DNA of 11,236 bases from Phycisphaerae bacterium (GTDB taxonomy: Bacteria > Planctomycetota > Phycisphaerae > UBA1845): contig JAJDDS010000494.1 of NCBI GenBank assembly GCA_029260195.1, positions 1 to 11,236 of the forward strand, written 5' to 3'. The position numbers were made by a program, and so were the translations under genes. The notes under the pieces were generated by a model. The model did no database searches. It saw only the letters and a program-made list of their open reading frames with translations, and was not told the DNA's origin. Of this stretch, positions 1-11,236 are shown one piece after another. Every line of letters begins with the position of its first letter. The first letter of the stretch is position 1.

Positions 1-52
1 GCTGTCCGCGTCGTCCATCGCGGATAAACTCGCGCTCCCGAAGGAACTCGTG

Positions 53-802
53 ATGGCCGCCATCGCCCAAGAGGCCGCCGCCGATCCGGAGTTGCAGGCC
101 ACGCGGAAAACGAACGACGTGTTTCTGTACCGTGGAGCTGCGACGCCTGCCCTGGAGAAAATGTCGATGAATGTCGTGGACCGTATCCGTAAGCTGTTCT
201 CCAGCGAGGGCGGCGAAGCCGAGAAAATCAACCTGCTCTCCGAACGTCGTGCCCAGCTCGCACAACGGCGCGATCGTCTGTATGGGGACATCGGCAAGCT
301 CGAATCCAAAGAGGCCGACCTGCTCAAAGAGGGGCGCGAAAACAAATCTCAGGTTGCCAGGCGGCGGTTGGCTGCTCAGTTGGGACAGCTTCGTAAGGAC
401 ATCGGCCGTCAAAACACGACGACCAACATGCTCAACCAGCAGATCAACATCATCAGCACGGACATTCACAATCTGACGCTGATCCAGCAAGGCAACCTCG
501 CCCAACTGCCAAGCACCGAGGAACTGACCGAAAACGCGGTGCAGGCCGAGGAGATGCTCGAGTCGTTGAAGGTCGACGCCGACATGGTCAGCAGTCTGGA
601 GACCGGACTGTCCGAAGTTTCCACCAGCGACGAAGAACTCGCCATCCTGAAGGAATTCGAGGAGTCCGACCCGCCGCGGAAGGTGGCGGAAGCGGATAAA
701 CCGACGCGCGTCGACTCCGTATTCGAACCGCCCGCGCCCGAACCGGAGTTACCCGACGCGCCCAACTCGTCTCGCGAGAAGGCGGACCCCGAAGCGATCT
801 AG
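53..802 (+). CDS. Snf7/ESCRT-III-like coiled-coil protein A. ATG at 53 has an AAGGAA RBS 6 nt upstream, but the frame is open to the window edge, so the gene may be 5'-truncated.
   Basis: By eye the translation aligns with yeast Snf7/CHMP4 helices a1-a4: KINLLSERRAQL vs HINLLSKKQSHL, then KEGRENKSQVARRRLAAQLGQLRKDIGRQNTTTNMLNQQINIIS vs KGNKVMAKNALKKKKTIEQLLSKVEGTMESMEQQLFSIES. Long heptad-repeat helices. The C-terminal third is strongly acidic and Pro-rich (EELAILKEFEESDPP...EPPAPEPELPDAP), giving the basic-N/acidic-C charge asymmetry typical of ESCRT-III. TAG stop at 800-802. Confidence 0.6.
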   Translation: MAAIAQEAAADPELQATRKTNDVFLYRGAATPALEKMSMNVVDRIRKLFSSEGGEAEKINLLSERRAQLAQRRDRLYGDIGKLESKEADLLKEGRENKSQVARRRLAAQLGQLRKDIGRQNTTTNMLNQQINIISTDIHNLTLIQQGNLAQLPSTEELTENAVQAEEMLESLKVDADMVSSLETGLSEVSTSDEELAILKEFEESDPPRKVAEADKPTRVDSVFEPPAPEPELPDAPNSSREKADPEAI

Positions 803-815
803 CGAGGAGTTATCC

Positions 816-1433
816 GTGCTGCAGTTGGTTGAATGGCTGACAAAACGTAAGAAGCCGTTGTCGCGGATGACGCGGTCCGAGTTGCGGCGCAAGGAGCTGA
901 TGCTCGAAAAGGACCGCACGCGGATGCTGAACCGGGTCAAGAAGCTGGCCGACGAGAAACAGGACATCTTCGCCAAGGGTGCTGATGAGAAAACGCCCGA
1001 AGTCCGGCGCGTGCTCGCTCAGGAGTTCGAGCTCAAGACCACCGAGCAGTTGATGGTCTCGCGGCAGCTCAACATACGAAGCAAGGAAGTGCTGACGGTC
1101 TCGCGGCTTCGGATGCTGCGCGAAAACGCCGATCGCGCGCAGGAGACTGGCGGTTCGCTCGGACTGATCTCCGAGGTCGATATCCTGCGGATGGGCAAGA
1201 TGATCGAGAACGACTCGATTCGTTCGGAAGCGTACTCGGAACGTCTCGACGAGATCCTCGGCGCCGGCGTCGAATCGGACCGCGAGGGCGTCGCGCTCTC
1301 CGAATCGGGACAGACCGTGATGAACATCTGGGACAGGATGGACGCCGGCGTCATCGCCGACAAGAACGAAGCCTTCGATGAGGCTGATCGGCAGGTCCGC
1401 GAGCGACAACGCGCCCCCGAGGAGCCGATATGA
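816..1433 (+). CDS. Snf7/ESCRT-III-like coiled-coil protein B
   Basis: GTG start at 816 with GAGGAG (804-809) 6 nt upstream. Basic N-terminus (KRKKPLSRMTRSELRRKELMLEKDRTRMLNRVKK), then long amphipathic helices with the spacing pattern of ESCRT-III a2/a3, then acidic C-terminal helices (DEILGAGVESDRE...DEADRQ). The stop TGA 1431-1433 overlaps the ATG of the next gene (ATGA). Confidence 0.55.
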   Translation: MLQLVEWLTKRKKPLSRMTRSELRRKELMLEKDRTRMLNRVKKLADEKQDIFAKGADEKTPEVRRVLAQEFELKTTEQLMVSRQLNIRSKEVLTVSRLRMLRENADRAQETGGSLGLISEVDILRMGKMIENDSIRSEAYSERLDEILGAGVESDREGVALSESGQTVMNIWDRMDAGVIADKNEAFDEADRQVRERQRAPEEPI

Positions 1434-1639
1434 TGAACACGTTTTCACGACCGCTGAGGCGCTCGATGGCCAATCGGCAGATCGCCGGTGTGTGCTCGGG
1501 GATTGCGGATTACTTGGGTCTGGACCCGACGGCGGTGCGCGTCGCGTATGTGTTGCTTTCCGTGTTCACCGTAGCCTTTCCGGGATTCTTGGTCTATTGC
1601 ATTCTGTGGTTGGTCATCCCGGAGCGTGAATATTACTAG
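1430..1639 (+). CDS. PspC-domain small membrane protein (phage-shock protein C family)
   Basis: RRSMANRQIAGVCSGIADYLGLDPTAVRVAYVLLSVFTVAFPGFLVYCILWLVIPE matches the PspC domain consensus (R..d.kiaGVcgGlA.yfg.dptlvR..fvll......g.l.Yl.lW...P) followed by one TM helix. The ATG overlaps the upstream stop (ATGA at 1430-1433), indicating translational coupling. Confidence 0.8.
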   Translation: MMNTFSRPLRRSMANRQIAGVCSGIADYLGLDPTAVRVAYVLLSVFTVAFPGFLVYCILWLVIPEREYY

Positions 1640-1672
1640 GCGTCCCCCGCGGGCGTTTGATGAGGCGAACGC

Positions 1673-2278
1673 ATGGGTCTTTTTAAGTCACCTGAAGAGC
1701 GGCGCATCGAGCGGGACATCAAGATCCGCCAGGGCATCCGCCGCATCGAAAAGAGCATCCGCGAGCAGGGCAAGTTCTCCGACGAGTTCATCCGCAACGC
1801 CCAGCACGCCAAGAAGATCGGCGACGACCAGCAGTACGCCTTCATCCGAAACTCGCTCAAGAAAACCGCAGCCGTCAAGAAAATCCTCGAACGCCAACTG
1901 CTCACAGTCAAGAACGCGCTGCTCATCAAGCGCCAAGCCGAAGCGTCCGCCGACTTCGCAAAGAGCATGGGACTCATGGCCAGCGAGATCGGACGCATGT
2001 TCGGCGAGACCGACCTGGTCAAGACCCAGGCTGACTGGGAGAAAGCCATGGTCCAGTCCCAGTCGAGGGAGGAGCGGATGGGCATGTTCCTGGACACCGT
2101 CGAGGACGTCGCCTCGCAGGACGTCGAGATGACCGCCTCCGACGCCATCGACGACGAGGAGATCGACCGCATGATCGAAGCCGAGACCGAGGCTGAGCAC
2201 CGCAAAGAACTCGACAAACTCGCCGGCCTCCGCGCCGAACTGAATTCCCTCAAACAGCAAGGAGAGAAGCAGAAATAG
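1673..2278 (+). CDS. Snf7/ESCRT-III-like coiled-coil protein C (CHMP1/Did2-like), with a C-terminal MIM1-like helix
   Basis: [9 protein letters not shown] N-terminus followed by a highly basic a1 ([25 protein letters not shown]). [44 protein letters not shown] resembles CHMP1 [90 protein letters not shown] resembles KVTKSMAGVVKSMDATLKTMNLEKISALMDKFEHQFETLDVQTQQMEDTM. Acidic stretch [19 protein letters not shown], then a terminal amphipathic [14 protein letters not shown]. RBS GAGG is 9 nt upstream of the ATG. Confidence 0.7.
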   Translation: [201 protein letters not shown]

Positions 2279-2307
2279 GGTCCACGATACGGTCACTGTG
2301 CGATAGC

Positions 2308-2322
2308 AGGGCACGCTGCCCT
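2308..2322 (+). terminator. Short hairpin (AGGGCA-cgc-TGCCCT) 30 nt after the stop of the third ESCRT-III-like gene; candidate weak terminator or RNA structure
   Basis: Perfect 6-bp inverted repeat with a 3-nt loop. There is no T-tract, so the terminator call is weak. Confidence 0.2.
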
Positions 2323-2344
2323 ACTCATGCCCTAATGCGACAAC

Positions 2345-3052
2345 ATGAAAGAAGAAATCCGGACAATCCGAGAACTTCTCGATCGAATAGAGTCGGGTCT
2401 CCACGTTGACGAAGAGCGGTCGTTTCAGGAGTCATTCGAGTTATTCGAGTTACCGGAGATTGTGACAAGCATTGTTGACCATCTTCAGCCTCTCCTGAGC
2501 CCATACGAATCCGCCGTGTTCTGGTACATGTTCCGCCATAGCGTTCTGGAGCATGGAGACGTGTATACTCGTGTCAGTGTCAATGGGCTGAGAAAGAGCG
2601 TCGTCAGGTCCGCTTCCGGGCAGTCGAAGAACCTGAGTCAAGAAACGGCTCGAAATACGCTGCTGGCTCTTGAAAAGAAAGGTGCAATCTCAAAGCAGGG
2701 AGACACGAACCGAGAGGGAACTCTCTACAGGGTGTATCTGCCGGAAGAAATCGACATCTGTCGCGAGCGAATGGCAGAGTATCAAGCAGAATCGCTCCCG
2801 ACGGTGGATCGCAAAAAAGAGCTCGATTACTACAACGTAAAGGAAAACAGGGCGAAGATCTTTGAACGAGATGCGTACAAGTGCCACTACTGCGGAAAAC
2901 AGCTCACAAGATTCAACGCGACGCTCGACCATCTGCAGCCGGTGACTCAGGGTGGCGATAATGCGTACGACAACCTCGTAACCGCCTGTTTGCACTGTAA
3001 TTCGCGTCGGGGATCGCGCCCCGTCATGGATTGGCTTGCGGAGAAGGAGTAG
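2345..3052 (+). CDS. HNH endonuclease with an N-terminal winged-helix domain; low-GC, apparently foreign gene
   Basis: C-terminus CHYCGKQLTRFNATLDHLQPVTQGGDNAYDNLVTACLHCNSRRGSRP is a classic HNH motif (Cys pair, catalytic His, Asn, second Cys-x2-Cys). The N-terminal region LSQETARNTLLALEKKGAISKQGDTNREGTLYRVYLP looks like a wHTH. Codon composition is visibly AT-richer (about 43% GC in the first 56 nt) than the ~65% surroundings. There is no SD upstream. Confidence 0.8.
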   Translation: MKEEIRTIRELLDRIESGLHVDEERSFQESFELFELPEIVTSIVDHLQPLLSPYESAVFWYMFRHSVLEHGDVYTRVSVNGLRKSVVRSASGQSKNLSQETARNTLLALEKKGAISKQGDTNREGTLYRVYLPEEIDICRERMAEYQAESLPTVDRKKELDYYNVKENRAKIFERDAYKCHYCGKQLTRFNATLDHLQPVTQGGDNAYDNLVTACLHCNSRRGSRPVMDWLAEKE

Positions 3053-3071
3053 GGCGGGCTTTGCCCGCCGG
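3053..3071. repeat. GC-rich hairpin repeat, copy 1 (GGCGGGC-ttt-GCCCGCC-GG), immediately after the HNH gene stop
   Basis: Perfect 7-bp stem with a 3-nt loop. The motif GCGGGC-TYY-GCCCGCCGG recurs at 3377-3395. Confidence 0.5.
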
Positions 3072-3132
3072 AACGCGTTGGCGGTTGTGCGATCGCCGAT
3101 GTCTCGAAATCGAACCGCAGTGTGAGAGAATC

Positions 3133-3375
3133 ATGCAAGCGAAGGAACTACAGTTACTCTCTCGGGCTCAGCCGTTCCGTCCGTTCGTCATTCGGTTGGC
3201 GGACGGGAGGGGCGTACCGGTGGATCATCCCGAGTTCATGGCTCTGGCGCCGACCGGGCGCAGCGCCGTAGTTTACGGAAAGGGCGGCGCGTTCGAAGTG
3301 ATCGACGTGCCCCTGGTGATAGGCCTGGAGGTACCCAACGGAAACTCCAGGATCCGTAGAAAGAAGAAGCGGTAG
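3133..3375 (+). CDS. hypothetical small protein (80 aa)
   Basis: ATG at 3133 preceded by GAGAGAA. The ORF ends with a basic tail (RIRRKKKR) at TAG 3373-3375. The longer ORF-track version (from 3031) would read through the HNH stop region and the hairpin, so the internal ATG is preferred. No recognisable family. Confidence 0.35.
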   Translation: MQAKELQLLSRAQPFRPFVIRLADGRGVPVDHPEFMALAPTGRSAVVYGKGGAFEVIDVPLVIGLEVPNGNSRIRRKKKR

Positions 3376-3376
3376 A

Positions 3377-3395
3377 GCGGGCTCCGCCCGCCGGG
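3377..3395. repeat. GC-rich hairpin repeat, copy 2 (GCGGGC-tcc-GCCCGC-CGGG), immediately after the small-ORF stop
   Basis: 6-bp perfect stem. The sequence is near-identical to copy 1, including the flanking CGG. Confidence 0.5.
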
Positions 3396-3405
3396 CAACG
3401 AAACA

Positions 3406-4056
3406 ATGCGAACGACGGTGAATCCAGGTGATATTCCGCAATGGCGCTCGTGGGAGGGGGTGCCGTTGCCTCCCCACGAGGAGATGCTCATGTTCCACAA
3501 GGACGCTGGTCCCGTTCCCGAGACGCTTCGCCGTCTCATGGCCATGCTGCAGAAGGAGAATATCGAATTCGTGGTCATCGGGGCCTTCGCCTTGGGCGCT
3601 CACCAGTATCGACGTGCAACCGAGGACGCGGACATTTGTTTGAGAGCGGCGGACATTGAACGCTTCAGGCGGGAGCTGGTCGGCACCGTCTATCAGCGCG
3701 TCGAAGGCCGCCAGCGCCGATTCTATGACCCTGACACGCAGGTTACGTTTGACCTGCTGATTTCCGGCGAATTGGCCGGCCACCGCGGGCGGAATCAGAC
3801 GATTCGTTTCCCCGACCCGTCAGAGGCGACCGTCGTGGGGGGACTGACGACCGTGTCGCTCGAGCGTCTGATTGAGCTGAAACTCGTCACGTGGCGAATC
3901 AGGGACATGGCCGACGTCATTGAGTTGATCCGCAGAAACAACTTGACCGAGGAATTCGCTGATCGGCTCCATCCGCTGGTCCGAACGCCGTATCTCGAGT
4001 GTTACGACCACAAGCTCGAAGAGGATCGACAGGATGAGGAGTATGGTGAGCACTGA
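3406..4056 (+). CDS. minimal nucleotidyltransferase-fold protein (Pol-beta superfamily; AbiEii/DUF1814-like). An alternative start at ATG 3490 has a GAGGAG RBS.
   Basis: VVIGAFALGAHQYRRATEDADICL fits the hG[GS]-x(10-13)-DxD nucleotidyltransferase signature and resembles the AbiEii GGtAL...R.S.DiD motif. A GAGGAG at 3478-3483 sits 6 nt before ATG 3490, which suggests the real N-terminus may be MFHKDAG.... Confidence 0.55.
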   Translation: MRTTVNPGDIPQWRSWEGVPLPPHEEMLMFHKDAGPVPETLRRLMAMLQKENIEFVVIGAFALGAHQYRRATEDADICLRAADIERFRRELVGTVYQRVEGRQRRFYDPDTQVTFDLLISGELAGHRGRNQTIRFPDPSEATVVGGLTTVSLERLIELKLVTWRIRDMADVIELIRRNNLTEEFADRLHPLVRTPYLECYDHKLEEDRQDEEYGEH

Positions 4057-4079
4057 TCGACCGCGCTCTGGAGCGACTC

Positions 4080-4132
4080 AAGGAGCGAGTATGAATTGTC
4101 CCGCCGGTACTTCGCGCCGGGGCGTGCGGTAG
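4080..4132 (+). promoter_or_regulatory. Perfect SD (AAGGAG, 4080-4085) plus ATG (4091) opening a 13-codon uORF (MNCPAGTSRRGVR) that stops at TAG 4130-4132, 1 nt before the GTG start of the DUF2723 gene
   Basis: Read directly: the spacing AAGGAG-5 nt-ATG is optimal. The uORF frame differs from the downstream gene. Possible leader peptide, reinitiation coupling, or a frameshifted true start. Confidence 0.3.
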
Positions 4133-4133
4133 G

Positions 4134-5741
4134 GTGGGCGCCGCCCGCGGGGTGGTGCCCGCATCGAAACAACGCGCCGTGAATCGGTTCGAGCACCATG
4201 ATGAAACAGGGTCCGAGACCGAGAGGAACCACCCATGGCCCAGGCTGACCCGCCGACAACGGACCTGCATCGCCGCGACCACGTTGCTGATCGCCGCCGT
4301 GGGGATCGCGCATCTGCCGCCCGGTGTGTGCTTCGCGGATTCGGGGGACCTGCAGGTGGCGTCGGCGACGTTGGGGATCGCCCATCCGCCGGGGTACGTC
4401 GGGTACGCCGCCGTCGGATGGTTGCTGTGCAAAGCGCTGTTTTTTCTGAAACCCGCGTATGTGGTGTCACTGGCGTGTCTGGCGTGCGTGGTACTGTCGC
4501 TTGCGATGTTGGCGGCATTGCTGGTACGCATGGGGTTGCACGTTCTCGGTGCGTGTTCGTTGTCGTTGCTGCTGGTCGCGCATCAGTCACCGCTGCAAAG
4601 CACGGTTTGGCAGAGCATGGGGTATCCAGAGGTCTACGCGCCGTCGTGGCTGCTGCTGATCGGCGCGACGCACTTGCTATTCAAATACGGTTGCGTGCAT
4701 CGGGCCGGCGCTTTGTGGACGGCGACGTTTCTTTTCGGATTTCTGGTGACGCAGCGTCCGCCGTCAGCTCTGTTCGCGCCTGGGTTTCTTCTGGCGTGGC
4801 TGTTGATCGAGCGACGACACCGCACGTCGCTGAAGCGGGCGGCGGGACTGTTCCTTGGAGGCCTGCTCTGGGCTTTGGTACCGGTGGTGCTCGTGATCGG
4901 GCTTGTCTGGACACTGGACGCGCCCGGAACGGACTACAATGGTATCGAGCAGTACGCCGAAGGCCACGGAGGTCTACCGAGTTATTCGGACGGCTATGCA
5001 GCCAAGCTACGCCGCGTGCAGTGGTTGATCACGGCGGAGCAGTTCGCCGAGTACGTGGCCACGGATCGGCATGTCGCCGCCAGCCGGCTGCGCTATATCC
5101 GGCGCGTGCTGCACCTATTCGATCGCGCGCCGTTTGCGTGCTTCCTCGTCTTGGTGTGTGCGGGCGTTTGGGTGAGTGCCCGGGGCGGCGGCGAACGAGC
5201 GGTCCTACCGTTGGGCTTGATGTTCGGGAACATCGCATTCTTGTGCATGTACCGCATCTACGGGCAGGCTGCCAATCTGTTGCCGACGGTCTTCGCCGCC
5301 GCGCTACCGGTCGGATCAGTTCTGGCGAAGTGGTTGCCGAATTCGATACGTGGCGGCCGAAGATGGTTCGCCGTAGCCATCTATACGTCGGCGTGCGTTT
5401 GGACCGTGTATCACGGCACAACGCGATACGCCTATGCCGGGCGCGCGGACGCGACGCAATTCCTGGCCGAGGTCGACCTCGCCGCGCTCCCGGGAGATTC
5501 CGTGATCTTTGCGGTCATGGCGAACTCGTGCCCCATCTGGTACGCCCGATCGGTCACTCTCGACCGCAAGGACATCGACATCGTCGTGGGGCCGACTCAT
5601 CGATGGGCCGAAGTCGCGGGACGTTACATCGATCGCCCGGTGTTCTACACGGAAGAGCGAGGAAAGGCGCCTGCGGGCTGGACGGCCGAACCGTCAGGGG
5701 TCCTCAGGCGGTTGACGCCCGATCAGAGACCCCGGGATTGA
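4134..5741 (+). CDS. DUF2723-family polytopic membrane protein (TMEM260-like; putative GT-C-fold glycosyl/mannosyltransferase)
   Basis: CFADSGDLQVASATLGIAHPPGYVGY matches the DUF2723/TMEM260 N-terminal signature (GDSGELxxAAxxLGVAHPPGYPLF). It is followed by more than 8 predicted TM helices. The start is uncertain (GTG 4134/4152/4155). The overlapping 4235..5770 ORF in another frame is Arg-rich high-GC noise. Confidence 0.8.
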   Translation: MGAARGVVPASKQRAVNRFEHHDETGSETERNHPWPRLTRRQRTCIAATTLLIAAVGIAHLPPGVCFADSGDLQVASATLGIAHPPGYVGYAAVGWLLCKALFFLKPAYVVSLACLACVVLSLAMLAALLVRMGLHVLGACSLSLLLVAHQSPLQSTVWQSMGYPEVYAPSWLLLIGATHLLFKYGCVHRAGALWTATFLFGFLVTQRPPSALFAPGFLLAWLLIERRHRTSLKRAAGLFLGGLLWALVPVVLVIGLVWTLDAPGTDYNGIEQYAEGHGGLPSYSDGYAAKLRRVQWLITAEQFAEYVATDRHVAASRLRYIRRVLHLFDRAPFACFLVLVCAGVWVSARGGGERAVLPLGLMFGNIAFLCMYRIYGQAANLLPTVFAAALPVGSVLAKWLPNSIRGGRRWFAVAIYTSACVWTVYHGTTRYAYAGRADATQFLAEVDLAALPGDSVIFAVMANSCPIWYARSVTLDRKDIDIVVGPTHRWAEVAGRYIDRPVFYTEERGKAPAGWTAEPSGVLRRLTPDQRPRD

Positions 5742-5766
5742 ACGGGCACGGCTCTGTGAGTCACCA

Positions 5767-6885
5767 ATGAGCGATTCGTCCATGACATTTGATCGGTACA
5801 AGTCCAAGGGGATCGCCGCCTACAAGAAGGGTGACTACCAGACGGCGAGGGCGTATCTGGTCGACGCGGCTGAGTGCATGGTCGAGATGGCGGAAAAAAC
5901 CGGATCACCCGACACACGACGGCAGCGCGAGGAACTCGCCACCGAACTTATCGAATTAGCAAGGGACTGCGACAATCGCCAGGGATCGCCGCGCACCAAC
6001 CGTCGTCCCCAACGTGAAAAAGAGGATGACGGCGCTGCGGATGCCTCAGACTGGGTCGTCAAGGAGCAATCTAATATCAGCTTCAACGACATCGCCGGGC
6101 TCGAAGACGTGAAGGAGGACATCCGCCTCAAAATGATCTACCCCGCTTCGCATCCGGAGTTGGCAAAACGATACGGCATCAACCTCGGTGGCGGGCTACT
6201 GCTCTACGGACCGCCAGGTACGGGCAAGACCATGATGGCCAAAGCCATCGCCCACGAACTGAACGCGACCTTCTTCGTCATAAGCCCGGCGCAGATTCTC
6301 AGCAAGTGGGTCGGCGAGGCGGAACAGAACGTGCGAAAGCTCTTCGACGCAGCCAAATCCGAACCGCAGGCCATCATCTTCATCGACGAAGTCGAAGCCC
6401 TCGTCCCCAAGCGTCAGGATGGTTCCTCGACTGTGATGCAGCGTGTCGTTCCGCAGATTCTGCAGGAATTGGAAGGCTTTGATCGGAAGAGCGACCGCGC
6501 GTTGCTCTTCGTCGGCGCGACGAACAAGCCCTGGGCGCTCGATGAAGCGATGCTCCGCCCCGGTCGCCTGGACACGAAAGCCTATGTCGGCCTGCCCGAC
6601 GCGCCGGCGCGATACCGCTTGCTGGAGATCTACTTCGGCGATCGGCCCCTGGACGAGGACGTCGATTTTGGAATGCTGTGCGACCGGCTGCAAGGATACA
6701 GTGGCGCCGATATCAAGGGCATCGCCGCCCAGTCGGCTTCGATACCGTTCACCGAAGCCATCAGTGGCCGCGATCCGCGTCCGATCAACATGATCGACAT
6801 CAGCAACGTGATTGACGCGACGCCACCGTCGGTCGGTAAGATATTGTTGGGACGGTTCGAATCATTCGCCGAGACCGGATCGTGA
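5767..6885 (+). CDS. Vps4-like AAA+ ATPase with an N-terminal MIT-like domain (meiotic clade: Vps4/katanin/spastin)
   Basis: The N-terminal ~75 aa (FDRYKSKGIAAYKKGDYQTARAYLVDAAECMVEMAEK...ELIELARDC) has MIT three-helix character. The AAA core has Walker A GPPGTGKT (6208-6231), Walker B IIFIDEVEAL, sensor-1 GATNKP, and the arginine-finger region LDEAMLRPGRLD. The segment IAGLEDVKEDIRLKMIYPASHPELAKRYGINLGGGLLLYGPPGTGKTMMAKAIAHELNATFFVISPAQILSKWVGEAEQNVRKLFDAAK is collinear with Vps4. Confidence 0.85.
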   Translation: MSDSSMTFDRYKSKGIAAYKKGDYQTARAYLVDAAECMVEMAEKTGSPDTRRQREELATELIELARDCDNRQGSPRTNRRPQREKEDDGAADASDWVVKEQSNISFNDIAGLEDVKEDIRLKMIYPASHPELAKRYGINLGGGLLLYGPPGTGKTMMAKAIAHELNATFFVISPAQILSKWVGEAEQNVRKLFDAAKSEPQAIIFIDEVEALVPKRQDGSSTVMQRVVPQILQELEGFDRKSDRALLFVGATNKPWALDEAMLRPGRLDTKAYVGLPDAPARYRLLEIYFGDRPLDEDVDFGMLCDRLQGYSGADIKGIAAQSASIPFTEAISGRDPRPINMIDISNVIDATPPSVGKILLGRFESFAETGS

Positions 6886-6886
6886 T

Positions 6887-6972
6887 GATGTAGCGCCACC
6901 CCATGTGGGTGGCGAGAACAGAGACCGATGTCCGCCCCGAACGGCGCCGCCCACAAGGGGTGGCGCTACATC
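6887..6972. repeat. 27-bp inverted repeat (arms 6888-6914 and 6945-6971, 25/27 complementary) with a 30-nt spacer. Each arm also contains its own 8-bp hairpin (CGCCACCC-catgt-GGGTGGCG).
   Basis: Arm1 is atgtagcgccaccccatgtgggtggcg. The reverse complement of arm2 is atgtagcgccaccccttgtgggcggcg. The repeat begins 2 nt after the Vps4-like stop codon. Confidence 0.6.
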
Positions 6973-6976
6973 GGGT

Positions 6977-7005
6977 GCCATGCCTAAGCGAAGCGCGGGC
7001 ATGGC
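6977..7005. repeat. Second intergenic hairpin (GCCATGCC-13 nt-GGCATGGC) just upstream of the 7026 start
   Basis: Perfect 8-bp inverted repeat read directly. Together with 6887-6972 it makes the 140-bp intergenic region highly structured. Confidence 0.45.
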
Positions 7006-7025
7006 GGATGTAACGAGATAATCTC

Positions 7026-8786
7026 ATGAGCGCCGAACAACCGGATCCCAAGACATTCTTCGAGTCGCCAGATGCGATCGCGATTACCGTCGACGCGGAC
7101 GCCCTGTTCGGTTTCCTCCCACGCGCCCACGAATTGCCCGCCGACCAAGCGGCGCTCGTTACCCGCGCACACGGTGACCGCATCGCTTACGCTCCGGGAT
7201 CGGAGGTCGAGCGCGGAAGCGCTGAAGCCGTGCTCCTGGTTCGCACGACACCGAACACGATTACGTTCGACGCGTTGACCGTCACCTCGCTCGACCGATA
7301 CCAATGTCCCGCGTCAGCCAAGATCCGCGTTTCGGTTGTCCCTGAATCTTCGGAGTTGACTTCGTTTCAAAGGAGCTTACTCGGCGGTCACGGCGCGGTC
7401 GGTCTGGCGGCGCTGCACGACTATATCGAACCCCACGTCATTCGCGCTTTGTCCGCCGTCGCCGACGGCCGCGGAGTCGAGGTGCTGATCGATCCCGCAA
7501 ACGGCGAGGCCTTTTCGACGGAAGTCGCGGACGCGCTCAAGAGGGCTACCTTCGCGGCCGGGCTGCGAATCGACGGATCCATCGACGTCCGATTCGATTC
7601 GCCGGTGTACCGACAGGTCCGCGCGTCGCGTGCCGCAGCCGAACGCCGCGAAGCGGAATTCGACGCCCAGCAACGTATCGCCAAAGCCGTCGAAACAGCC
7701 CAGCGCGAGCGCGCGAAACACCTGGCTGATTTGCTCGAACAGCTATCCCGCAACGCCGATCGCTCGCCGAACCACGACCTGGCCGACCTCCTCGGGACGT
7801 TTCCCGAGACGGAGCGCGGCGAACTGTACGCCGCGCTCTTCGGCGCTGACGACACCCGCGCCGTCACCCGCTGGATCGTCGCCGGCTCTGGGCGCGAACT
7901 GCTCTTCTTCGCGCCCGACCTGCTCGCGACCCCGGCCCGAACCGTTCACATTCCGGACACCATCGGACCCGTGCGATCCGTGCGGTTCCATGCTGACGCC
8001 GACGGCCGATCGCGATTGATCGTCGGCGCCTCTCGAGGCCTGCACGACTTCGCCGTTGACGGTGACGCCCAATTCGCGACCCACACCATCGACTCCGACG
8101 AGGACGTGCGCGGCGGTGTCAATTCAGCCGCCATCGCCGGCGACAACTTGTTTGCCTCACACTCGGAATTGGGCGTGTTGTATTGGAATCGTGGCGACGA
8201 CGCGCCTGCACGCGCGATTCTCGCGGACCGGACGCGCGGTGCCAGCGCCGTGCGCTGCTCCCGCTTTTTCAACGGAAGGGTCTACTTCTCGATCGACGAA
8301 CAGATTCTCTCCGTCCCCGCCGACGCCCCGAACAGTGAGCCCGAGGTTTTCACGGGAAATCACGCCCTCATTACCGCTCTCTGCCCTACGATCGCGGGTC
8401 TCTACGCCGGGAACGCCGACGGGCAGATTCTGCACTGGCCTGAAGGACAATCCGACGAACCCGAACTCCTCCACTCCGGTCGCCAACGCTCGGCCGAATC
8501 GGTTGCGGTGCTCGACTTCGGCGGGCTAAGCCGTCTCTTCTACACCGACACGTCCGTGGCTGTCTTCGCGCGCGTCCTGGGCGACACCTTCACTTGCCGC
8601 TACGAAGCCGCCGGACAAACCCTGCGCCGCGTCGAAGTTGCCCCCGATTTGATCGTTGCGACCAACGAGATTCGCGACCGTCTCATCTTCTGGCGCCCCA
8701 GCCGGCCCGACACGCCGCTCGCCGTGGTGGCGGTTTCACCCCTCACCGGCCACTCCATCCAGGACGTCTGTCTCATCCCCGCATAG
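7026..8786 (+). CDS. hypothetical 586-aa protein: possible SPFH/band-7-like N-terminal domain, coiled coil, and C-terminal beta-propeller-like repeats
   Basis: The long ORF sits on the same strand directly after the Vps4-like gene. Residues ~60-200 (ITFDALTVTSLDRYQCPASAKIRVSVVPE ... GLRIDGSIDVRFDSP) followed by an E/A/R/Q-rich helix (RASRAAAERREAEFDAQQRIAKAVETAQRERAKHLADLLEQ) resemble the SPFH core plus the trailing helix of stomatin/flotillin/HflK. The C-terminal half has repeated Gly/aromatic blade-like segments (GVLYWNRGDD, DGQILHWPEG, DRLIFWRPS). The domain calls are made by eye. Confidence 0.6.
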   Translation: MSAEQPDPKTFFESPDAIAITVDADALFGFLPRAHELPADQAALVTRAHGDRIAYAPGSEVERGSAEAVLLVRTTPNTITFDALTVTSLDRYQCPASAKIRVSVVPESSELTSFQRSLLGGHGAVGLAALHDYIEPHVIRALSAVADGRGVEVLIDPANGEAFSTEVADALKRATFAAGLRIDGSIDVRFDSPVYRQVRASRAAAERREAEFDAQQRIAKAVETAQRERAKHLADLLEQLSRNADRSPNHDLADLLGTFPETERGELYAALFGADDTRAVTRWIVAGSGRELLFFAPDLLATPARTVHIPDTIGPVRSVRFHADADGRSRLIVGASRGLHDFAVDGDAQFATHTIDSDEDVRGGVNSAAIAGDNLFASHSELGVLYWNRGDDAPARAILADRTRGASAVRCSRFFNGRVYFSIDEQILSVPADAPNSEPEVFTGNHALITALCPTIAGLYAGNADGQILHWPEGQSDEPELLHSGRQRSAESVAVLDFGGLSRLFYTDTSVAVFARVLGDTFTCRYEAAGQTLRRVEVAPDLIVATNEIRDRLIFWRPSRPDTPLAVVAVSPLTGHSIQDVCLIPA

Positions 8787-8884: not shown

Positions 8885-9958
8885 CTACGGAAGTTCAACG
8901 ACGATGTTCGCGTAGTATGTGTTGTCGAGACGATCGAATCCGGGCTGCGGACTGGAGTTGTATTCGTTGCGCATCCCGACCTTGAGCTTGAATCGATCGT
9001 CTTTGAATGGGATCAACAGGGCTGTGTCCAGATCGAGGCGGTAGTCGTTGAACTCCTCAAAATCTGGACTGTATGTCGTCGAGTGCGTGAACCTCGCCCA
9101 TGGCACGACGTCCAGGCGATAATCCAGCCCGAGGTCAATCACTGCGCTGTCGTTTGTCCGGTCGCCCTGATATGCCTCATGTCGGTAACCGGCGCCGAAC
9201 CGGTTCTTCAGCTCGTGATGCGGTTTCTTGAGCCAGTAGTACGTCCCGCCGCTCGCTGCCGTGGCGCGAAGATCGAGATCCTCGAATTCGTCGAATTCCA
9301 ACTCCATCCGAGCATACCATGACCAGTGATCGTCGATGGTGTATTCGTAGTTCATACCGCCGCGGTACTCGTTGGTTGTTCGGCTGTCGTTTTGCTCGCT
9401 GTACTCCGCCGCGAGATAGAAATGAAGCATATCGACGGCCGTCTTACGCCTGAGATCGAATCGGCCCCGCGCGTCGAGCGTATCCGTGTTGCCCTCTTTG
9501 CGCGATCCCCCGGCCTCAAACGTCGATTTCCACTCCGGCGCATAAGCCCTTTTCGTTTCGGCTGCCTCGGCTTTGACGGCGGCGAGTTCGGGGCTTTCGC
9601 TGCCGGGCGGCCACATCGACTTGATCTGTCCCGCCGACACATCGAGCGCTCCGAGCGCCGTGCGCATCGTCGATGTTCGCTGCTCGTCCCCGGCCGCCAT
9701 CGTCCCGACCAAGCGGTCACCGCTCTCGAACTCAACGGTCAGCGGTTCGTCGAATTCAAATGCGACGATCTGGCTGCTGTCGATCTCGACATGACCGAAT
9801 AGCGCGCTGGCGATCTTGAGCTTGCCACCAGCCATCTGTTCGATCTTGCCAACGAGCTTGCTGCCGTCCGACGTGAATACGGTGTCTCCGAAGCACACCG
9901 TCGGGATACTCGGCAACACAAGAAGGACAACAAGAGCGACCGGTCGCGCCACGTTCAT
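8885..9958 (-). CDS. DUF481-family (YdiY-like) outer-membrane beta-barrel protein with a signal peptide and an N-terminal extension
   Basis: Starting at ATG 9956-9958 gives MNVARPVALVVLLVLPSIPTVCFG (signal peptide). The C-terminal ~230 aa has the alternating Tyr/Asp/Gly-rich beta-strand pattern and the GNTDT...DNTYY motifs typical of DUF481. The longer ORF-track version (to 10033) adds an unlikely Arg-rich leader. Confidence 0.6.
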   Translation of the reverse strand: MNVARPVALVVLLVLPSIPTVCFGDTVFTSDGSKLVGKIEQMAGGKLKIASALFGHVEIDSSQIVAFEFDEPLTVEFESGDRLVGTMAAGDEQRTSTMRTALGALDVSAGQIKSMWPPGSESPELAAVKAEAAETKRAYAPEWKSTFEAGGSRKEGNTDTLDARGRFDLRRKTAVDMLHFYLAAEYSEQNDSRTTNEYRGGMNYEYTIDDHWSWYARMELEFDEFEDLDLRATAASGGTYYWLKKPHHELKNRFGAGYRHEAYQGDRTNDSAVIDLGLDYRLDVVPWARFTHSTTYSPDFEEFNDYRLDLDTALLIPFKDDRFKLKVGMRNEYNSSPQPGFDRLDNTYYANIVVELP

Positions 9959-10029
9959 GATCCGTCCCCTACTTTCCGCATCGAGCGGATTAGCCTCGCC
10001 GCGAGCACCCCTGGATGCGACGACCCGCA

Positions 10030-10251
10030 TCACTGGTCGCCGAAGAACTCATTCACCGCCGTGGTGATGAACTGATCGATTGGTGTCAGGATCGCGCCGC
10101 GCAGCAGACTCGTGATCACTTCGCGGCCGTTGAGCGTCGTCGATGTCGTGATGTCGCCGAACTCGCAGCCCCCGAACTGAAAAAGCATTCCGCCCGCGCA
10201 AAGCAGCCCCACCGCCCGATGGCGGGCCGCAGTCCTGATCCTCGCCGTCAT
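10030..10251 (-). CDS. small hypothetical protein (74 aa) with a hydrophobic, signal-like N-terminus
   Basis: ATG at 10249-10251 overlaps the TGA stop of the upstream gene (10248-10250), i.e. an ATGA overlap. The sequence MTARIRTAARHRAVGLLCAGGMLFQFGGC looks like a signal or lipobox. Upstream of this ATG the ORF-track frame is Arg/Gly junk. Confidence 0.4.
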   Translation of the reverse strand: MTARIRTAARHRAVGLLCAGGMLFQFGGCEFGDITTSTTLNGREVITSLLRGAILTPIDQFITTAVNEFFGDQ

Positions 10252-10889
10252 GTTTTCGCTCCCGTGAGAGTTCGTCTCGAATCCCGGCGCCTCGCGCCAT
10301 GATGTGGGCATCCTAGACGCCTTCCCCGGCCCGTCAACACCGTCAATCCGGAGGCTCGCTCCGTGATCGCTTCTCCGCAGGGTCCATGACGCTTGCGGCG
10401 CCATCGATCCGAGCCCCAAGCGCAAGCGCGGGGTCTCACAGGCGCGAGCACCACCCCAATGAGCCCCACGAACAACACGCACACGCAGAACGCGAAAACG
10501 GACGCACTTGACTCCTGCAACAACTCTATGCGTTGTCGGCGTTCTTCCTCAGGAGAATCCGGCTCTCCTTTACCTTCGATAAACAGATTTCGAGCGACCA
10601 ATAACGGATAGTATCCGGCGGTCATCATCGTAACGACAAGCGCCAGCACGCAACTCTTGAGATAGAAGCTGGAACCATCGTAACGCCAAAACTCAGGGTT
10701 CCAGTACTTGAGACCCTCCACACAGAGAACGCCCCAGGCGTACCAAACTACAAACCAGAGCAATCCCCCTATCCGGGGACGCCCGTTCGCGAGCGCGCGC
10801 AGCAATACTAACGGATACAACATGTACCACCAACGGCTAGCGCGGTCCGCTCTCTGCGCGGGTTCCTTTTCATCCAGCTCGTCTGACAC
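10248..10889 (-). CDS. hypothetical integral membrane protein (about 4 TM helices in the first 150 aa). The Arg-rich C-terminal 60 aa is of doubtful reality.
   Basis: GTG start at 10887-10889 lies 2 nt after the TAG stop of the crotonase-family gene. Hydrophobic segments: WWYMLYPLVLLRALA, LLWFVVWYAWGVLCV, CVLALVVTMMTAGYYPLLVA, VFAFCVCVLFVGLIGVVLAPV. Confidence 0.5.
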   Translation of the reverse strand: MSDELDEKEPAQRADRASRWWYMLYPLVLLRALANGRPRIGGLLWFVVWYAWGVLCVEGLKYWNPEFWRYDGSSFYLKSCVLALVVTMMTAGYYPLLVARNLFIEGKGEPDSPEEERRQRIELLQESSASVFAFCVCVLFVGLIGVVLAPVRPRACAWGSDRWRRKRHGPCGEAITERASGLTVLTGRGRRLGCPHHGARRRDSRRTLTGAKT

Positions 10890-10891
10890 GA

Positions 10892-11236
10892 CTACTCGCC
10901 GCCGCGCTTCCGCACGCCCTCGTAATCGATCGGCCGCTTTTCGACAAACGCCCGCGTACCCTCATGCACCTCCCCCGCACGATTGTGAATACTCAGCCAC
11001 TCCCGAGCGTGCCCGATCGTCTGATGCCAAGACACCTCACGCCAGTAGTTGAGCTGCTGCTTCGTGTACCGCATGCACTCCGGCAGCTTGTCGATCAGCT
11101 TCCCACACATCTCATCCACCGTCGCATCCAGCTCCGCACGCGGAACAACCCTGTTCACCAACCCCCACTCCAGCGCCTTCGCAGCCGGAATCTCATCGCA
11201 CAGCATCAGAATCTCCCGCGCCCGCCGATCCCCCAC
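10892..11236 (-). CDS. enoyl-CoA hydratase/isomerase (crotonase) family protein, C-terminal part (MenB/naphthoate-synthase-like). The N-terminus lies beyond the window end.
   Basis: AREILMLCDEIPAAKALEWGLVNRVVPRAELDATVDEMCGKLIDKLPECMRYTKQQLN...HEGTRAFVEKRPIDY matches the C-terminal helices and trimerisation region of crotonase/MenB. Compare MenB ...[33 protein letters not shown]...QEGRNAFNQKRQPDF. The frame is open to the window edge. Confidence 0.8.
   Translation of the reverse strand: MGDRRAREILMLCDEIPAAKALEWGLVNRVVPRAELDATVDEMCGKLIDKLPECMRYTKQQLNYWREVSWHQTIGHAREWLSIHNRAGEVHEGTRAFVEKRPIDYEGVRKRGGE

Follow-up and report, generated by a model that had tools for sequence, protein, structure and literature searches.

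Our analysis supports the presence in a bacterial genome of a conserved operon in which Snf7-type ESCRT-III-like proteins are encoded together with a Vps4-like ATPase, and this cluster is, in our judgement, probably the bacterial equivalent of the membrane-remodelling machine formed by ESCRT-III and Vps4. The window, i.e. the whole 11,236-nt stretch of Phycisphaerae DNA that was analysed, contains the following ORFs:

2..802, + strand: helical protein cc1, gene truncated by the window edge, 3' part only
816..1433, + strand: helical protein cc2, 205 aa, probable divergent ESCRT-III-like subunit
1430..1639, + strand: PspC-domain protein, 69 aa, Pfam PspC
1673..2278, + strand: cc3, 201 aa, assigned as a Snf7-type ESCRT-III protein
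2345..3052, + strand: HNH endonuclease, Pfam HNH, variable slot
3133-3375, + strand: small ORF, ~80 aa, variable slot
3406-4056, + strand: nucleotidyltransferase-like protein, 216 aa, variable slot
4134..5741, + strand: multi-pass membrane protein, weakly TMEM260-like, optional neighbour
5767..6885, + strand: predicted Vps4/CdvC-like AAA ATPase, 372 aa
7026..8786, + strand: protein J, SPFH domain and WD40-like propeller

[quoted passage not shown] Its observations as a whole were confirmed in part: the ORFs and the PspC, AAA and SPFH domains stood, whereas the completeness of cc1, the paralogy of all three helical proteins and the strength of the MIT and Vps4_C assignments did not. Its ESCRT-III/Vps4 interpretation is supported, with caveats. 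None of the three outcomes that it had named as speaking against it was obtained, namely helical proteins belonging to PspA/IM30, an ATPase with a non-MIT N-terminus and an FtsH/ClpX-type core, and a cluster that is not conserved as a unit.

Dozens of Phycisphaerae MAGs share the order cc1-cc2-PspC-cc3-(variable slot)-ATPase-J, and the association of these genes is therefore far beyond chance. A same-strand cc3 lies upstream of the ATPase in 26 of the 35 related loci, directly adjacent to it in 13, and was absent from the upstream sequence covered in the other 9; both cc1 and cc2 are present in 24/31 loci. In other Planctomycetota and in Bacillota a cc3-like gene is kept beside the ATPase at 26-40% identity, usually with an SPFH gene nearby, which in several cases belongs to the cluster.

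From its sequence and predicted fold, cc3 is assigned to the Snf7-type ESCRT-III proteins and not to PspA. It begins with an MGLFKS motif (1673-1690) and ends in a MIM1-like helix, ELDKLAGLRAELNSLK (2207-2254); the tail consensus of the Phycisphaerae cc3 type is L-R-x-x-L-x-x-L-K, and sister clades carry the canonical R-L-x-x-L-[KR] core in their C-terminal tail. Taken alone, the cc1, cc2 and cc3 proteins of the window match neither Pfam Snf7 or PspA nor any PDB sequence, and it takes orthologues and profiles to bring out the Snf7 signal of the helical proteins. Among cc3 relatives no Pfam family recurs except Snf7 (5/14, nearly full length), with sub-threshold matches in the orthologues L047 (4.4e-5, the best, positions 4-165 of 171) and L053 (2.8e-4), and precomputed PF03357 annotation is found on 14 database homologues of cc3 as well as in L084-86. 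The best PDB match of the cc3 family profile is CHMP2A (E=0.0075), with which it is colinear over helices alpha1-alpha4. By hhalign, cc3 scored 94.7% (E=6.3e-8) against Snf7-type references, as compared with E-values of 0.13 against PspA and 0.23 against a reversed null; for several hhalign tests the reference sequences had been entered by hand. The structural comparison suggested by the sequence-only reading pointed the same way: with an AF2 model of cc3 (pLDDT 74), Foldseek placed CHMP3, CdvB and CHMP2A on top (probability 0.97), followed by Asgard ESCRT-IIIB, the five highest matches all being ESCRT-III proteins, although E-values in the structure searches of the cluster proteins were all >0.2.

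The other two helical proteins are more divergent. The first ORF is incomplete: its reading frame runs open as far as window base 2, whereas full-length orthologues of ~490-510 aa (6969-8507 in L002; 487 aa in L091) carry an extra N-terminal domain and a winged-helix/HTH domain. The window thus holds the end of a winged-helix/HTH-like domain, followed by an ESCRT-III-like helical region that starts with the M of nt 161, then the conserved helix DEELAILKEFEE (629-664) and an acidic tail rich in Pro. In cc2, an amphipathic helix lies at the N-terminus (816-848) and a strongly conserved helix, EAFDEADR.VRE, at the C-terminal end (1368-1403). All three helical proteins had been described as paralogues of Snf7 fold; family profiles show cc1 and cc2 to be clearly paralogous (hhalign 96.9%, E=1.5e-10, 169 columns), but their relation to the Snf7-type cc3 is weak (E=0.002-0.02). 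Against Snf7 references alone cc1 gave E=0.008, with a reversed-sequence null of 0.048, and the cc1/cc2 side gave 2.6e-4 against a null of 0.026. cc1 had no direct Pfam match. Among distant cc2 relatives, Snf7 was again the sole recurrent Pfam family (5/43, best 2.5e-4). The cc2 model has a helical-hairpin architecture, and in the suggested structural comparison it matches BAR domains as well as ESCRT-III. The basic-N/acidic-C charge asymmetry described earlier was found in all three proteins (N-half pI >10, C-half pI ~4). We regard the ESCRT-III assignment of cc1 and cc2 as moderate, not firm, and cc2 as a probable divergent subunit.

The PspC-domain protein between cc2 and cc3 is bona fide, in agreement with the consensus recognized earlier (Pfam 7.9e-24, 83.7 bits, cut-off 25; NCBIfam 1e-14, under the equivalog cut-off). 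It has one predicted transmembrane helix (residues 35-53) and is present in 19 of the 31 related loci with enough upstream sequence (tblastn). Such a neighbour could indicate a Psp-type envelope-stress system, in which PspC recruits the helical proteins as PspA/LiaH-like effectors and the ATPase is not a Vps4-like disassemblase. We hold this to be quite improbable: no member of the three helical families matches PspA_IM30, hhalign against PspA/Vipp1 gave values of 0.13-0.57, which is noise, Vipp1 ranked below the CHMP and CdvB structures in Foldseek, and PspC is missing where distant versions of the cluster keep the Snf7-like/ATPase pair.

The ATPase is predicted to be a competent single-cassette AAA protein (Pfam AAA, 2.4e-40) of Vps4/CdvC-like architecture, with a MIT-like three-helix N-domain (~5788-5991), a linker, the AAA cassette, a lid and, at the C-terminus, a further helix (6823-6873). 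The cassette contains the pore loop (SKWVGE, nt 6301-6318), Walker A (GPPGTGKT, nt 6208-6231), Walker B (IIFIDE, nt 6373-6390) and the SRH (6517-6573), and the arginine fingers are intact. Over its full length it matches archaeal CdvC best in NCBIfam (1.1e-68), residues 10-369 being colinear with profile positions 13-366 of 370, but the equivalog threshold is missed (232 vs 650 bits). For the AAA core alone, HMM scores tie (CDC48 210.8, PAN 210.5, CdvC 197.9 bits; FtsH 181), so that CdvC is not favoured there over Cdc48 or PAN. The earlier claim of a MIT domain plus Walker motifs stands for the latter; the MIT-like N-domain and the Vps4_C-like end are weakly supported, as the N-terminus of the window protein gave TPR-like matches only, while the E-values were 0.048 for Vps4_C and 0.015 for the CdvC C-terminus. 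Orthologues show Vps4_C marked as weak, and a paralogue in L047 exceeds the Pfam threshold for it; no window protein reached the curated threshold for Snf7, MIT, Vps4_C or CdvC. In a neighbour-joining tree from which archaeal CdvC was absent and whose references had been entered by hand, the family was sister to Vps4/spastin/katanin (88% bootstrap) and did not group with FtsH, PAN or Cdc48, a clade placement that we treat as provisional. The SRH retains the RPGRLD of classic-clade ATPases and keeps the two residues that are deleted in Vps4, spastin and katanin.

Protein J combines an SPFH/Band-7 domain (~residues 37-222; Band_7 6.3e-7, 30 bits, gathering cut-off 23.6), a helical linker and a WD40-like beta-propeller (~residues 284-560); the SPFH-like and propeller parts had been recognized from the letters. 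Its profile matched designed WD40 repeat proteins in the PDB at 7e-19 and natural propellers (Prp19, WDR83, KIF21A, Fbw7) at 1.6e-4 to 1e-3. Its gene directly follows that of the ATPase in 32/34 related loci, the most conserved link in the cluster, and SPFH proteins also accompany distant versions (L052, L054, L081-86). Together with the equal scores of the AAA core against the Cdc48/PAN unfoldases and CdvC, this would suit SPFH-centred membrane-protein quality control of the FtsH-HflK/C kind, where the ATPase works mainly with J to extract or unfold membrane-associated substrates and the helical proteins are adaptors or substrates. That reading seems unlikely to us, since Pfam and NCBIfam revealed no protease domain within the ATPase or beside it, J has no predicted transmembrane helix, a Snf7-type protein with a MIM1-like tail lies directly before the ATPase across phyla, and SPFH-ESCRT and SPFH-PspA links are known in ESCRT-III-type systems (PMC10936438, PMC11237479).

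The proposed ESCRT-III/Vps4 counterpart resembles the archaeal Cdv/ESCRT systems (CdvB paralogues with CdvC in Thermoproteota; Asgard ESCRT-IIIA/B with Vps4) in having several ESCRT-III paralogues beside a ~370-aa ATPase made of a MIT-like domain, a single AAA cassette and a C-terminal helix, in its best matches (CdvC for the full-length ATPase, CdvB among the top cc3 structures) and in the winged-helix domain on one ESCRT-III-like subunit, here the cc1 orthologues. It differs in its diderm bacterial host, the lack of CdvA and of recognisable ESCRT-I or ESCRT-II, its PspC-domain and SPFH-WD40 partners, and the CdvC shortfall and RPGRLD-bearing SRH of its ATPase. With eukaryotic ESCRT-III/VPS4 (CHMP2A-CHMP3-VPS4; CHMP7) cc3 shares the MGLF-type start, MIM1-like end and CHMP2A-colinear profile, and the SKW.GE pore loop and a 'PW.LD' motif of the ATPase also occur in Vps4 reference sequences entered by hand. 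The CHMP7 layout of N-terminal domain, winged helix and ESCRT-III-like region resembles that of cc1. However, identity to the eukaryotic proteins is only 13-20%, length and the colinear CdvC alignment leave no evident Vta1-binding beta-domain in the ATPase, and the cluster has neither upstream components of the ESCRT-0, -I or -II kind nor a ubiquitin link. PspA/Vipp1 (IM30) systems with PspB/PspC share the ESCRT-III superfamily and a PspC-domain membrane partner, but the helical proteins here lean to Snf7, PspF-type regulator and PspB are absent from the window cluster, and a Vps4-like ATPase is present. The earlier view that the cluster is closer to canonical ESCRT-III/Vps4 than to PspA/IM30 is supported by the cc3 profile comparison and the full-length CdvC match.

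In the literature searched, ESCRT systems are described as limited to archaea and eukaryotes (PMC10936438), and a 2025 review considers that a Vps4-like ATPase appears absent from bacterial systems (PMC7619361). SPFH proteins are linked to some archaeal ESCRT loci (PMC10936438), and a Band-7/SPFH association is described for PspA operons (PMC11237479; PMC10936438, on YdjI). Our literature search found no published description of such a bacterial system, in line with the sequence-only reading, but earlier computational work had recorded Vps4-like ATPases in a small number of bacteria (Ravi et al. 2024, PMC11237479; example ACB74714.1). According to that paper, snf7 is displaced in those loci by an unrelated TPR + 6TM membrane protein. 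They share with the window and seven related loci a multi-pass membrane protein by the ATPase, whereas here the Snf7-like genes remain in one operon with the ATPase and it is the membrane protein that is optional.

We infer that the cluster carries out ATP-driven remodelling of a membrane-bound ESCRT-III-like polymer. The helical proteins, with their charge asymmetry and N-terminal amphipathic motifs, would assemble into a mixed polymer at the inner membrane, on its cytoplasmic side, at a site marked or anchored by the PspC protein and/or the SPFH-WD40 protein, and cc1, given the additional domains of its full-length orthologues, may act as adaptor or nucleator. The MIM1-like helix of cc3 would recruit the MIT-like domain of the ATPase, whose hexamer would pull subunits through its pore (loop SKWVGE) and extract them from the polymer. 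Such turnover may lead to membrane deformation, scission or repair, and the cellular role might lie in repair, in vesicle formation or in cell division.

HNH, AbiEii-like NTase and PIN/DUF433 genes accumulate in the slot that separates cc3 from the ATPase, and the ATPase matches PADLOC IetA models (8.6e-35) and NCBIfam IteA, as might be expected of a membrane-acting anti-phage or abortive-infection system built around it. To this explanation we give the slimmest chance. The IetA score (119 bits) is far below those of Cdc48, PAN and CdvC (198-232 bits) and thus reflects generic AAA similarity, there is no IetS-type partner, and cc1, cc2, cc3, PspC and J have no meaningful PADLOC matches. Unlike a mobile defence island, the cluster shows stable chromosomal synteny across the whole class, with conserved kinase and GGDEF flanks, and viral contigs hold no relatives of it. 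The four genes in this interval (HNH, small ORF, NTase-like, multi-pass membrane) were missing from the sequence-only reading. The HNH gene (Pfam 1.2e-11), where GC falls locally to 0.546, has no homologue in 80 related loci and recurs in the independent assembly L089; it probably came in recently by insertion and does not belong to the system. The NTase-like protein weakly matches Pfam aminoglycoside nucleotidyltransferase (E=0.01), its gene occupies the same slot in 8 related loci, with faint NTP_transf_5/AbiEii matches for the L090 orthologue, and it is possibly one half of a toxin-antitoxin-type pair with the small ORF; in L091 a DUF433-PIN pair stands there instead. The multi-pass membrane protein (at least six hydrophobic segments; TMEM260-like, E=0.0011, sub-threshold) has homologues directly upstream of the ATPase in the seven related loci mentioned above.

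Ten open reading frames (ORFs), all on the + strand and separated by gaps of 13-140 nt plus one 4-nt overlap, make up the cluster in the window, the G+C content of which is ~60%. Three further genes lie convergent with it on the - strand. The features are as follows.

2-802, + strand: cc1, helical protein, truncated at the window edge
816-1433, + strand: cc2, helical protein
1430-1639, + strand: PspC, PspC-domain protein
1673-2278, + strand: cc3, helical protein
2345-3052, + strand: HNH endonuclease
about 3133-3375, + strand: small ORF, no identity assigned
3406-4056, + strand: nucleotidyltransferase-like (NTase-like) protein
4134-5741, + strand: multi-pass membrane protein
5767-6885, + strand: AAA ATPase
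7026-8786, + strand: J, 586-aa protein
8885-11236, - strand: DUF481 outer-membrane protein, 213-aa 3-TM protein and enoyl-CoA hydratase fragment, convergent with the cluster

The DUF481 outer-membrane protein named in the sequence-only reading was recovered by Pfam at 2.6e-43. Neither it nor the 3-TM and enoyl-CoA hydratase genes have counterparts among the related loci mapped, and the three - strand genes therefore lie outside the conserved unit. A promoter scan returned a single promoter-like match, on the - strand downstream of the cluster, and the + strand terminator-like matches were all located within ORFs or outside the cluster. Exact-sequence look-ups of the window proteins returned neither names nor accessions; the closest relatives of the window are Phycisphaerae (Planctomycetota) MAGs.

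To map the neighbourhood in other genomes, the ATPase was used to scan one genome per species, which rendered 80 loci onto which all window proteins were placed. The following counts refer to orthologues whose identity is 60% or higher, 48 in all, in subsets with enough flanking sequence. J is found downstream of the ATPase in 32 of 34 loci. Of the 35 loci for which 3 kb or more of upstream sequence is available, 26 have cc3 upstream of the ATPase and on its strand, and in 13 of those 26 it adjoins the ATPase (gap <150 nt). Where at least 5 kb of upstream sequence was available, cc1 and cc2 were present in 24 of 31 loci and PspC in 19 of 31. These linkage counts define the canonical order cc1-cc2-PspC-cc3-ATPase-J. 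The genes are thus kept as a unit, and this conserved synteny rules out their chance juxtaposition.

The sequence-only reading had described three paralogous proteins of the Snf7 fold. Searched directly, cc1, cc2 and cc3 of the window matched nothing in Pfam, NCBIfam or the PDB sequences, and a Pfam Snf7 (PF03357) match was absent even at E<=10; the expected Snf7 signal was found instead in their orthologues, below threshold. Orthologues of cc3 reached E=4.4e-5 (23.6 bits, below the gathering score of 27.3) in a nearly full-length alignment to profile positions 4-165 of 171, and among the matches listed Snf7 was the only Pfam family to match several cc3 relatives (5 of 14 diverse members). A precomputed PF03357 label is carried by 14 cc3 homologues in a large protein collection. 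When a cc3 family profile (52 sequences) was searched against 177,635 PDB sequences, CHMP2A was the best match (E=0.0075), in an alignment colinear over helices alpha1-alpha4. Foldseek matched the AlphaFold2 model of cc3 (pLDDT 74; helices 7-49, 52-109, 115-149 and 161-200) first to CHMP3, three CdvB entries of S. islandicus and CHMP2A (probability 0.97, TM 0.69), but with every E-value at 0.24 or above; Asgard ESCRT-IIIB and Vipp1 ranked lower in the same list. Local hhalign alignment against six eukaryotic ESCRT-III sequences gave 94.7% and E=6.3e-8, as opposed to 0.13 against PspA/Vipp1 and 0.23 against reversed references; all these reference sequences were manually entered, so that the comparison is a lead and not a database result. 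The Pfam matches, the PF03357 labels, the profile match to CHMP2A, the AlphaFold2/Foldseek comparison and hhalign agree with one another, and on this basis cc3 is most probably an ESCRT-III protein of the Snf7 type rather than a PspA.

Further features of cc3 lie at its two ends. The protein starts with MGLFKS, which resembles the N-termini of CHMP3 and Vipp1, and the C-terminus of the family is formed by a conserved amphipathic helix, LRAELNSLK in the window. The core of the MIT-interacting motif MIM1 is R-L-x-x-L-[KR], and the tails of sister-clade cc3 proteins, SRLEALKAR or RRLAELE, fit it; the cc3 tail may be regarded as a MIM1-like helix and a candidate MIT-interacting motif. The basic N-terminal and acidic C-terminal halves ascribed to all three helical proteins are indeed present, with calculated pI values of 10.2/4.1 for cc1, 10.8/4.3 for cc2 and 10.4/4.4 for cc3.

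A placement of the helical proteins in PspA/IM30 was also considered. Neither the listed Pfam matches of the window proteins nor the scans of 72 family members, of which the 25 families with the most matching members were listed, contained PspA_IM30 (PF04012), and hhalign alignments of the helical families to E. coli PspA and Synechocystis Vipp1, both manually entered, gave E=0.13-0.57, the same as reversed controls. On these listings and alignments, a PspA/IM30 identity of the proteins was rejected. The PspC domain itself (PF04024) is well above its gathering score (7.9e-24; 83.7 bits versus a cut-off of 25), and the single hydrophobic segment at residues 35-53 agrees with the proposed membrane protein. 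Interpretation of the whole cluster as a Psp-type stress system is nevertheless disfavoured, given that there is no PspA signal and that PspC is lost in distant versions.

The two remaining helical proteins, cc1 and cc2, are paralogues of each other (hhalign 96.9%, E=1.5e-10 over 169 columns). Their direct link to cc3 is weak (E=0.002-0.02), so that the claim of three paralogues stood for this pair and was overstated for the trio; BLASTP among the three proteins returned a single weak match, between cc2 and cc3 (9e-5). Their family is narrow (193 representatives at 50% clustering). In a scan of 43 sequences, the window cc2 plus 42 distant full-length relatives, Snf7 was the only recurrent Pfam family among the matches listed (5 of 43, best 2.5e-4). 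An hhalign alignment to manually entered Snf7 references gave 2.6e-4 over 123 colinear columns, compared with 0.026 for the reversed null and 0.17 for PspA. The model of cc2 (pLDDT 80, pTM 0.71) opens with a short helix at the N-terminus, followed by a long hairpin and three more helices; it is architecturally compatible with ESCRT-III, yet BAR domains match it better, and an ESCRT-III match was absent when the cc2 profile was searched against PDB sequences. We regard cc1 and cc2 as probable divergent ESCRT-III-like proteins and not as proven ones.

In the window, cc1 is the 3' part of a longer gene, its frame being open to base 2. Orthologues of about 490-510 aa carry an N-terminal domain and an HTH/winged-helix domain, as in the full-length copy at 6969-8507 of the related locus L002, where an N-terminal domain of ~230 aa and the HTH/winged helix precede the ESCRT-III-like region. 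The winged helix has weak matches to HTH_20, TrmB and EAP30/Vps36 and is MerR-like in locus L084; only its last portion is contained in the window, at 2-160. This layout is, in its domain order, reminiscent of CHMP7 or of ESCRT-II/ESCRT-III coupling. The tail of cc1 (window 722-763) is rich in proline (FEPPAPEPELPDAP), with a conserved ADPEA at its end. Across orthologues the Pro-rich character is kept and the sequence is not; the tail might represent a MIM2-like element.

The 372-aa ATPase consists of a single AAA cassette (Pfam AAA 2.4e-40) with the Walker A and B motifs noted in the sequence-only reading intact (GPPGTGKT and IIFIDE), an aromatic pore loop 1 (K-W-x-G, in the form SKWVGE) and intact SRH arginines; the motif ATNKPWALDEAMLRPGRLD is likewise present. 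Its best full-length NCBIfam match is archaeal CdvC (1.1e-68), which aligns ATPase residues 10-369 to profile positions 13-366 of 370. The score of 231.9 bits is far below the equivalog cut-off of 650; by NCBI's definition the ATPase does not count as orthologous to crenarchaeal CdvC. Scored alone, the AAA core gave 210.8 bits for CDC48, 210.5 for PAN, 197.9 for CdvC and 181 for FtsH. As the core by itself does not favour CdvC, it is the N- and C-terminal extensions that account for the advantage of CdvC.

Both extensions were analysed separately. The N-terminal 75 residues have a three-helix, TPR-like appearance and weakly match the MIT domain of a chitin synthase (2mpk, E=0.31), with TPR-like matches otherwise. 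Pfam MIT matched one of 18 orthologous ATPase N-termini (5.3e-4), and hhalign against manually entered MIT references gave 7.4e-4 compared with a null of 0.021. Of the proposed combination of MIT domain and Walker motifs, the latter is thus secure and the former weak in the window ATPase. The C-terminal 51 residues matched Pfam Vps4_C at E=0.048 and the C-terminal end of CdvC at E=0.015, and orthologues bear Vps4_C annotated as 'weak'; a PDB search with the last 92 residues did not separate Vps4 from Cdc48 or FtsH.

With regard to clade membership, a neighbour-joining (NJ) tree, built without CdvC and with manually entered references for the eukaryotic proteins, PAN and FtsH, placed the bacterial ATPase family (98% bootstrap) as sister to Vps4/spastin/katanin (88%) and apart from Cdc48 D1/D2, PAN and FtsH. 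Vps4-like features are also seen in the pore loop (SKWVGE) and in the motif 'PW.LD'. On the other hand, the SRH retains RPGRLD without the 2-residue deletion that marks the meiotic clade. The proposed placement in that clade is favoured by the tree; the core HMM scores do not favour CdvC over CDC48 or PAN, and the motifs are mixed. The architecture appears Vps4/CdvC-like, and the evidence on its clade points both ways.

More distant versions of the cluster, with ATPase identities of 36-48%, were found in MAGs of other Planctomycetota and of Bacillota. Most of those with enough flanking sequence (loci L047, L048, L050-L053 and L059) retain a cc3-like gene beside the ATPase. Two layouts were read from independently called genes that carry precomputed Pfam labels. 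The first, in a further lineage of planctomycetes, has the order 497-aa protein (MerR-like HTH), proteins of 250 and 214 aa, AAA, Snf7 (weak), AAA and Band_7; the other, in a second, probably Firmicutes-type lineage, is Band_7_1, two small proteins, a cc3-like protein and AAA. The recurring core is a Snf7-like protein together with the ATPase. In this further planctomycete lineage, two ATPases flank the Snf7-like gene (L047 4488-5786; L084 6218-7471), the upstream one having the 2-residue SRH deletion of Vps4/spastin/katanin and grouping with them in the NJ tree. This upstream paralogue, at 4488-5786 in L047, also reaches 26.7 bits for Vps4_C, above the gathering score of 21.3.

J has the SPFH-like and beta-propeller parts anticipated for it: Band_7 (PF01145) scores 27.6 bits with the full protein and 30.0 with the N-terminal fragment (cut-off 23.6), and a profile search of PDB sequences matched the C-terminal half to WD40 propellers. 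An SPFH-type protein was nearby wherever the wider context could be read (L052, L054, L081-86). An SPFH-centred unfoldase is a possible reading of the cluster, the ATPase-J pair being its tightest link; it leaves unexplained the Snf7-like partner with its MIM-like tail.

A variable slot separates cc3 from the ATPase and in the window holds the four extra genes. Among the related loci, the NTase-like gene recurs in 8 and the membrane protein in 7; the slot of L090 (10739-11341) holds an AbiEii-like/NTP_transf_5-like NTase (faint match) and that of L091 (10782-12345) a DUF433-PIN pair. The HNH protein (235 aa; window 2345-3052) has a C-terminal HNH domain (Pfam 1.2e-11) and an N-terminal half without Pfam match. 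Its gene is peculiar to this genome, as is the small ORF. None of the 80 related loci contains a counterpart of the HNH gene, which an independent assembly of the same organism (L089) does carry and which falls on the G+C minimum of the window (0.546). A recent mobile insertion is its likely origin, and the slot looks like a hot spot for toxin-antitoxin-type genes within an otherwise conserved operon. The membrane protein (4134-5741), directly upstream of the ATPase, has at least 6 hydrophobic segments and a weak TMEM260-like match; TPRs were not detected in it. It may be the counterpart of the 'TPR + 6TM' protein reported next to Vps4-like ATPases in bacteria (Ravi et al. 2024, PMC11237479).

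A role in defence is unsupported. IetA models match the ATPase at 8.6e-35, a generic AAA similarity, and PADLOC gave generic IetA and PtuB similarity only, for which reason a known defence system was rejected. Ietis (IetA-IetS) in particular was rejected, as no other cluster protein matches a PADLOC model meaningfully. The stable synteny and conserved flanks also speak against defence. In the viral collections searched, cc3 relatives were absent and the ATPase had generic AAA matches only.

From the gene content, domain identities and conserved linkage observed here, we infer a function in membrane remodelling, as follows. The helical proteins would polymerise on the inner membrane, where the single-pass PspC and/or the SPFH-WD40 protein would recruit or organise the polymer and cc1, via its extra domains, would serve as adaptor. 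cc3 would then recruit the ATPase by a MIM1-like/MIT-like contact, and the ATPase would extract subunits via its pore and drive remodelling. In the cell, such a system may serve repair, vesiculation or division. Beyond the window edge, in front of cc1, essentially every cc1-bearing locus has a conserved block of three genes (L002 3811-6889 and 23 other loci) encoding a GGDEF diguanylate cyclase, a small membrane protein of ~140 aa and a double-zinc-ribbon Ser/Thr kinase. Ser/Thr kinases are also located beside distant versions (L048 6975-8969; L051 12039-14066; L081 1-753). This gene context suggests possible control by phosphorylation or c-di-GMP.

A far bolder reading would make the cluster the missing FtsZ-independent cytokinesis machine of Planctomycetota, that is, a Cdv-like ESCRT-III/Vps4 division ring regulated by the conserved upstream Ser/Thr kinase and diguanylate cyclase, and either acquired from archaea or inherited from a pre-LUCA ESCRT-III lineage. 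We consider this unlikely; it is weakened by the related clusters in MAGs of Bacillota, members of which normally have FtsZ. The division mode of planctomycetes has been called one of the major mysteries (PMC5147048).

According to a 2025 review, a Vps4-like ATPase appears to be absent from the bacterial ESCRT-III systems, PspA/Vipp1 (PMC7619361). Ravi et al. 2024 (PMC11237479) reported the transfer of Vps4-like ATPases to several bacteria, with a TPR+6TM protein having 'displaced' snf7; homologues of Snf7 were reported from bacteria occasionally, in different contexts. Neither ESCRT nor Vps4 comes up in a 2025 review of the phylum, and our full-text literature searches turned up no account of a Snf7-like/Vps4-like operon in planctomycetes, in keeping with the earlier view that no such bacterial system has been characterised. 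If true, a conserved bacterial operon with Snf7-type proteins and a Vps4/CdvC-like ATPase would change the picture of a Vps4-less bacterial ESCRT-III and make it possible to study the ATP-driven turnover of ESCRT-III in a simple bacterial system, with PspC and SPFH-WD40 proteins as new partners. For planctomycetes that lack FtsZ, it puts forward a concrete candidate for membrane scission that can be tested. It also bears on whether the ESCRT-III/Vps4 partnership came by horizontal transfer from archaea or has an older origin.

Finally, a full Phycisphaerae-type cluster (65% ATPase identity) was found on a 558-kb contig labelled 'Alphaproteobacteria bacterium' (L028, JANQQE010000024.1), a MAG label that is probably wrong.
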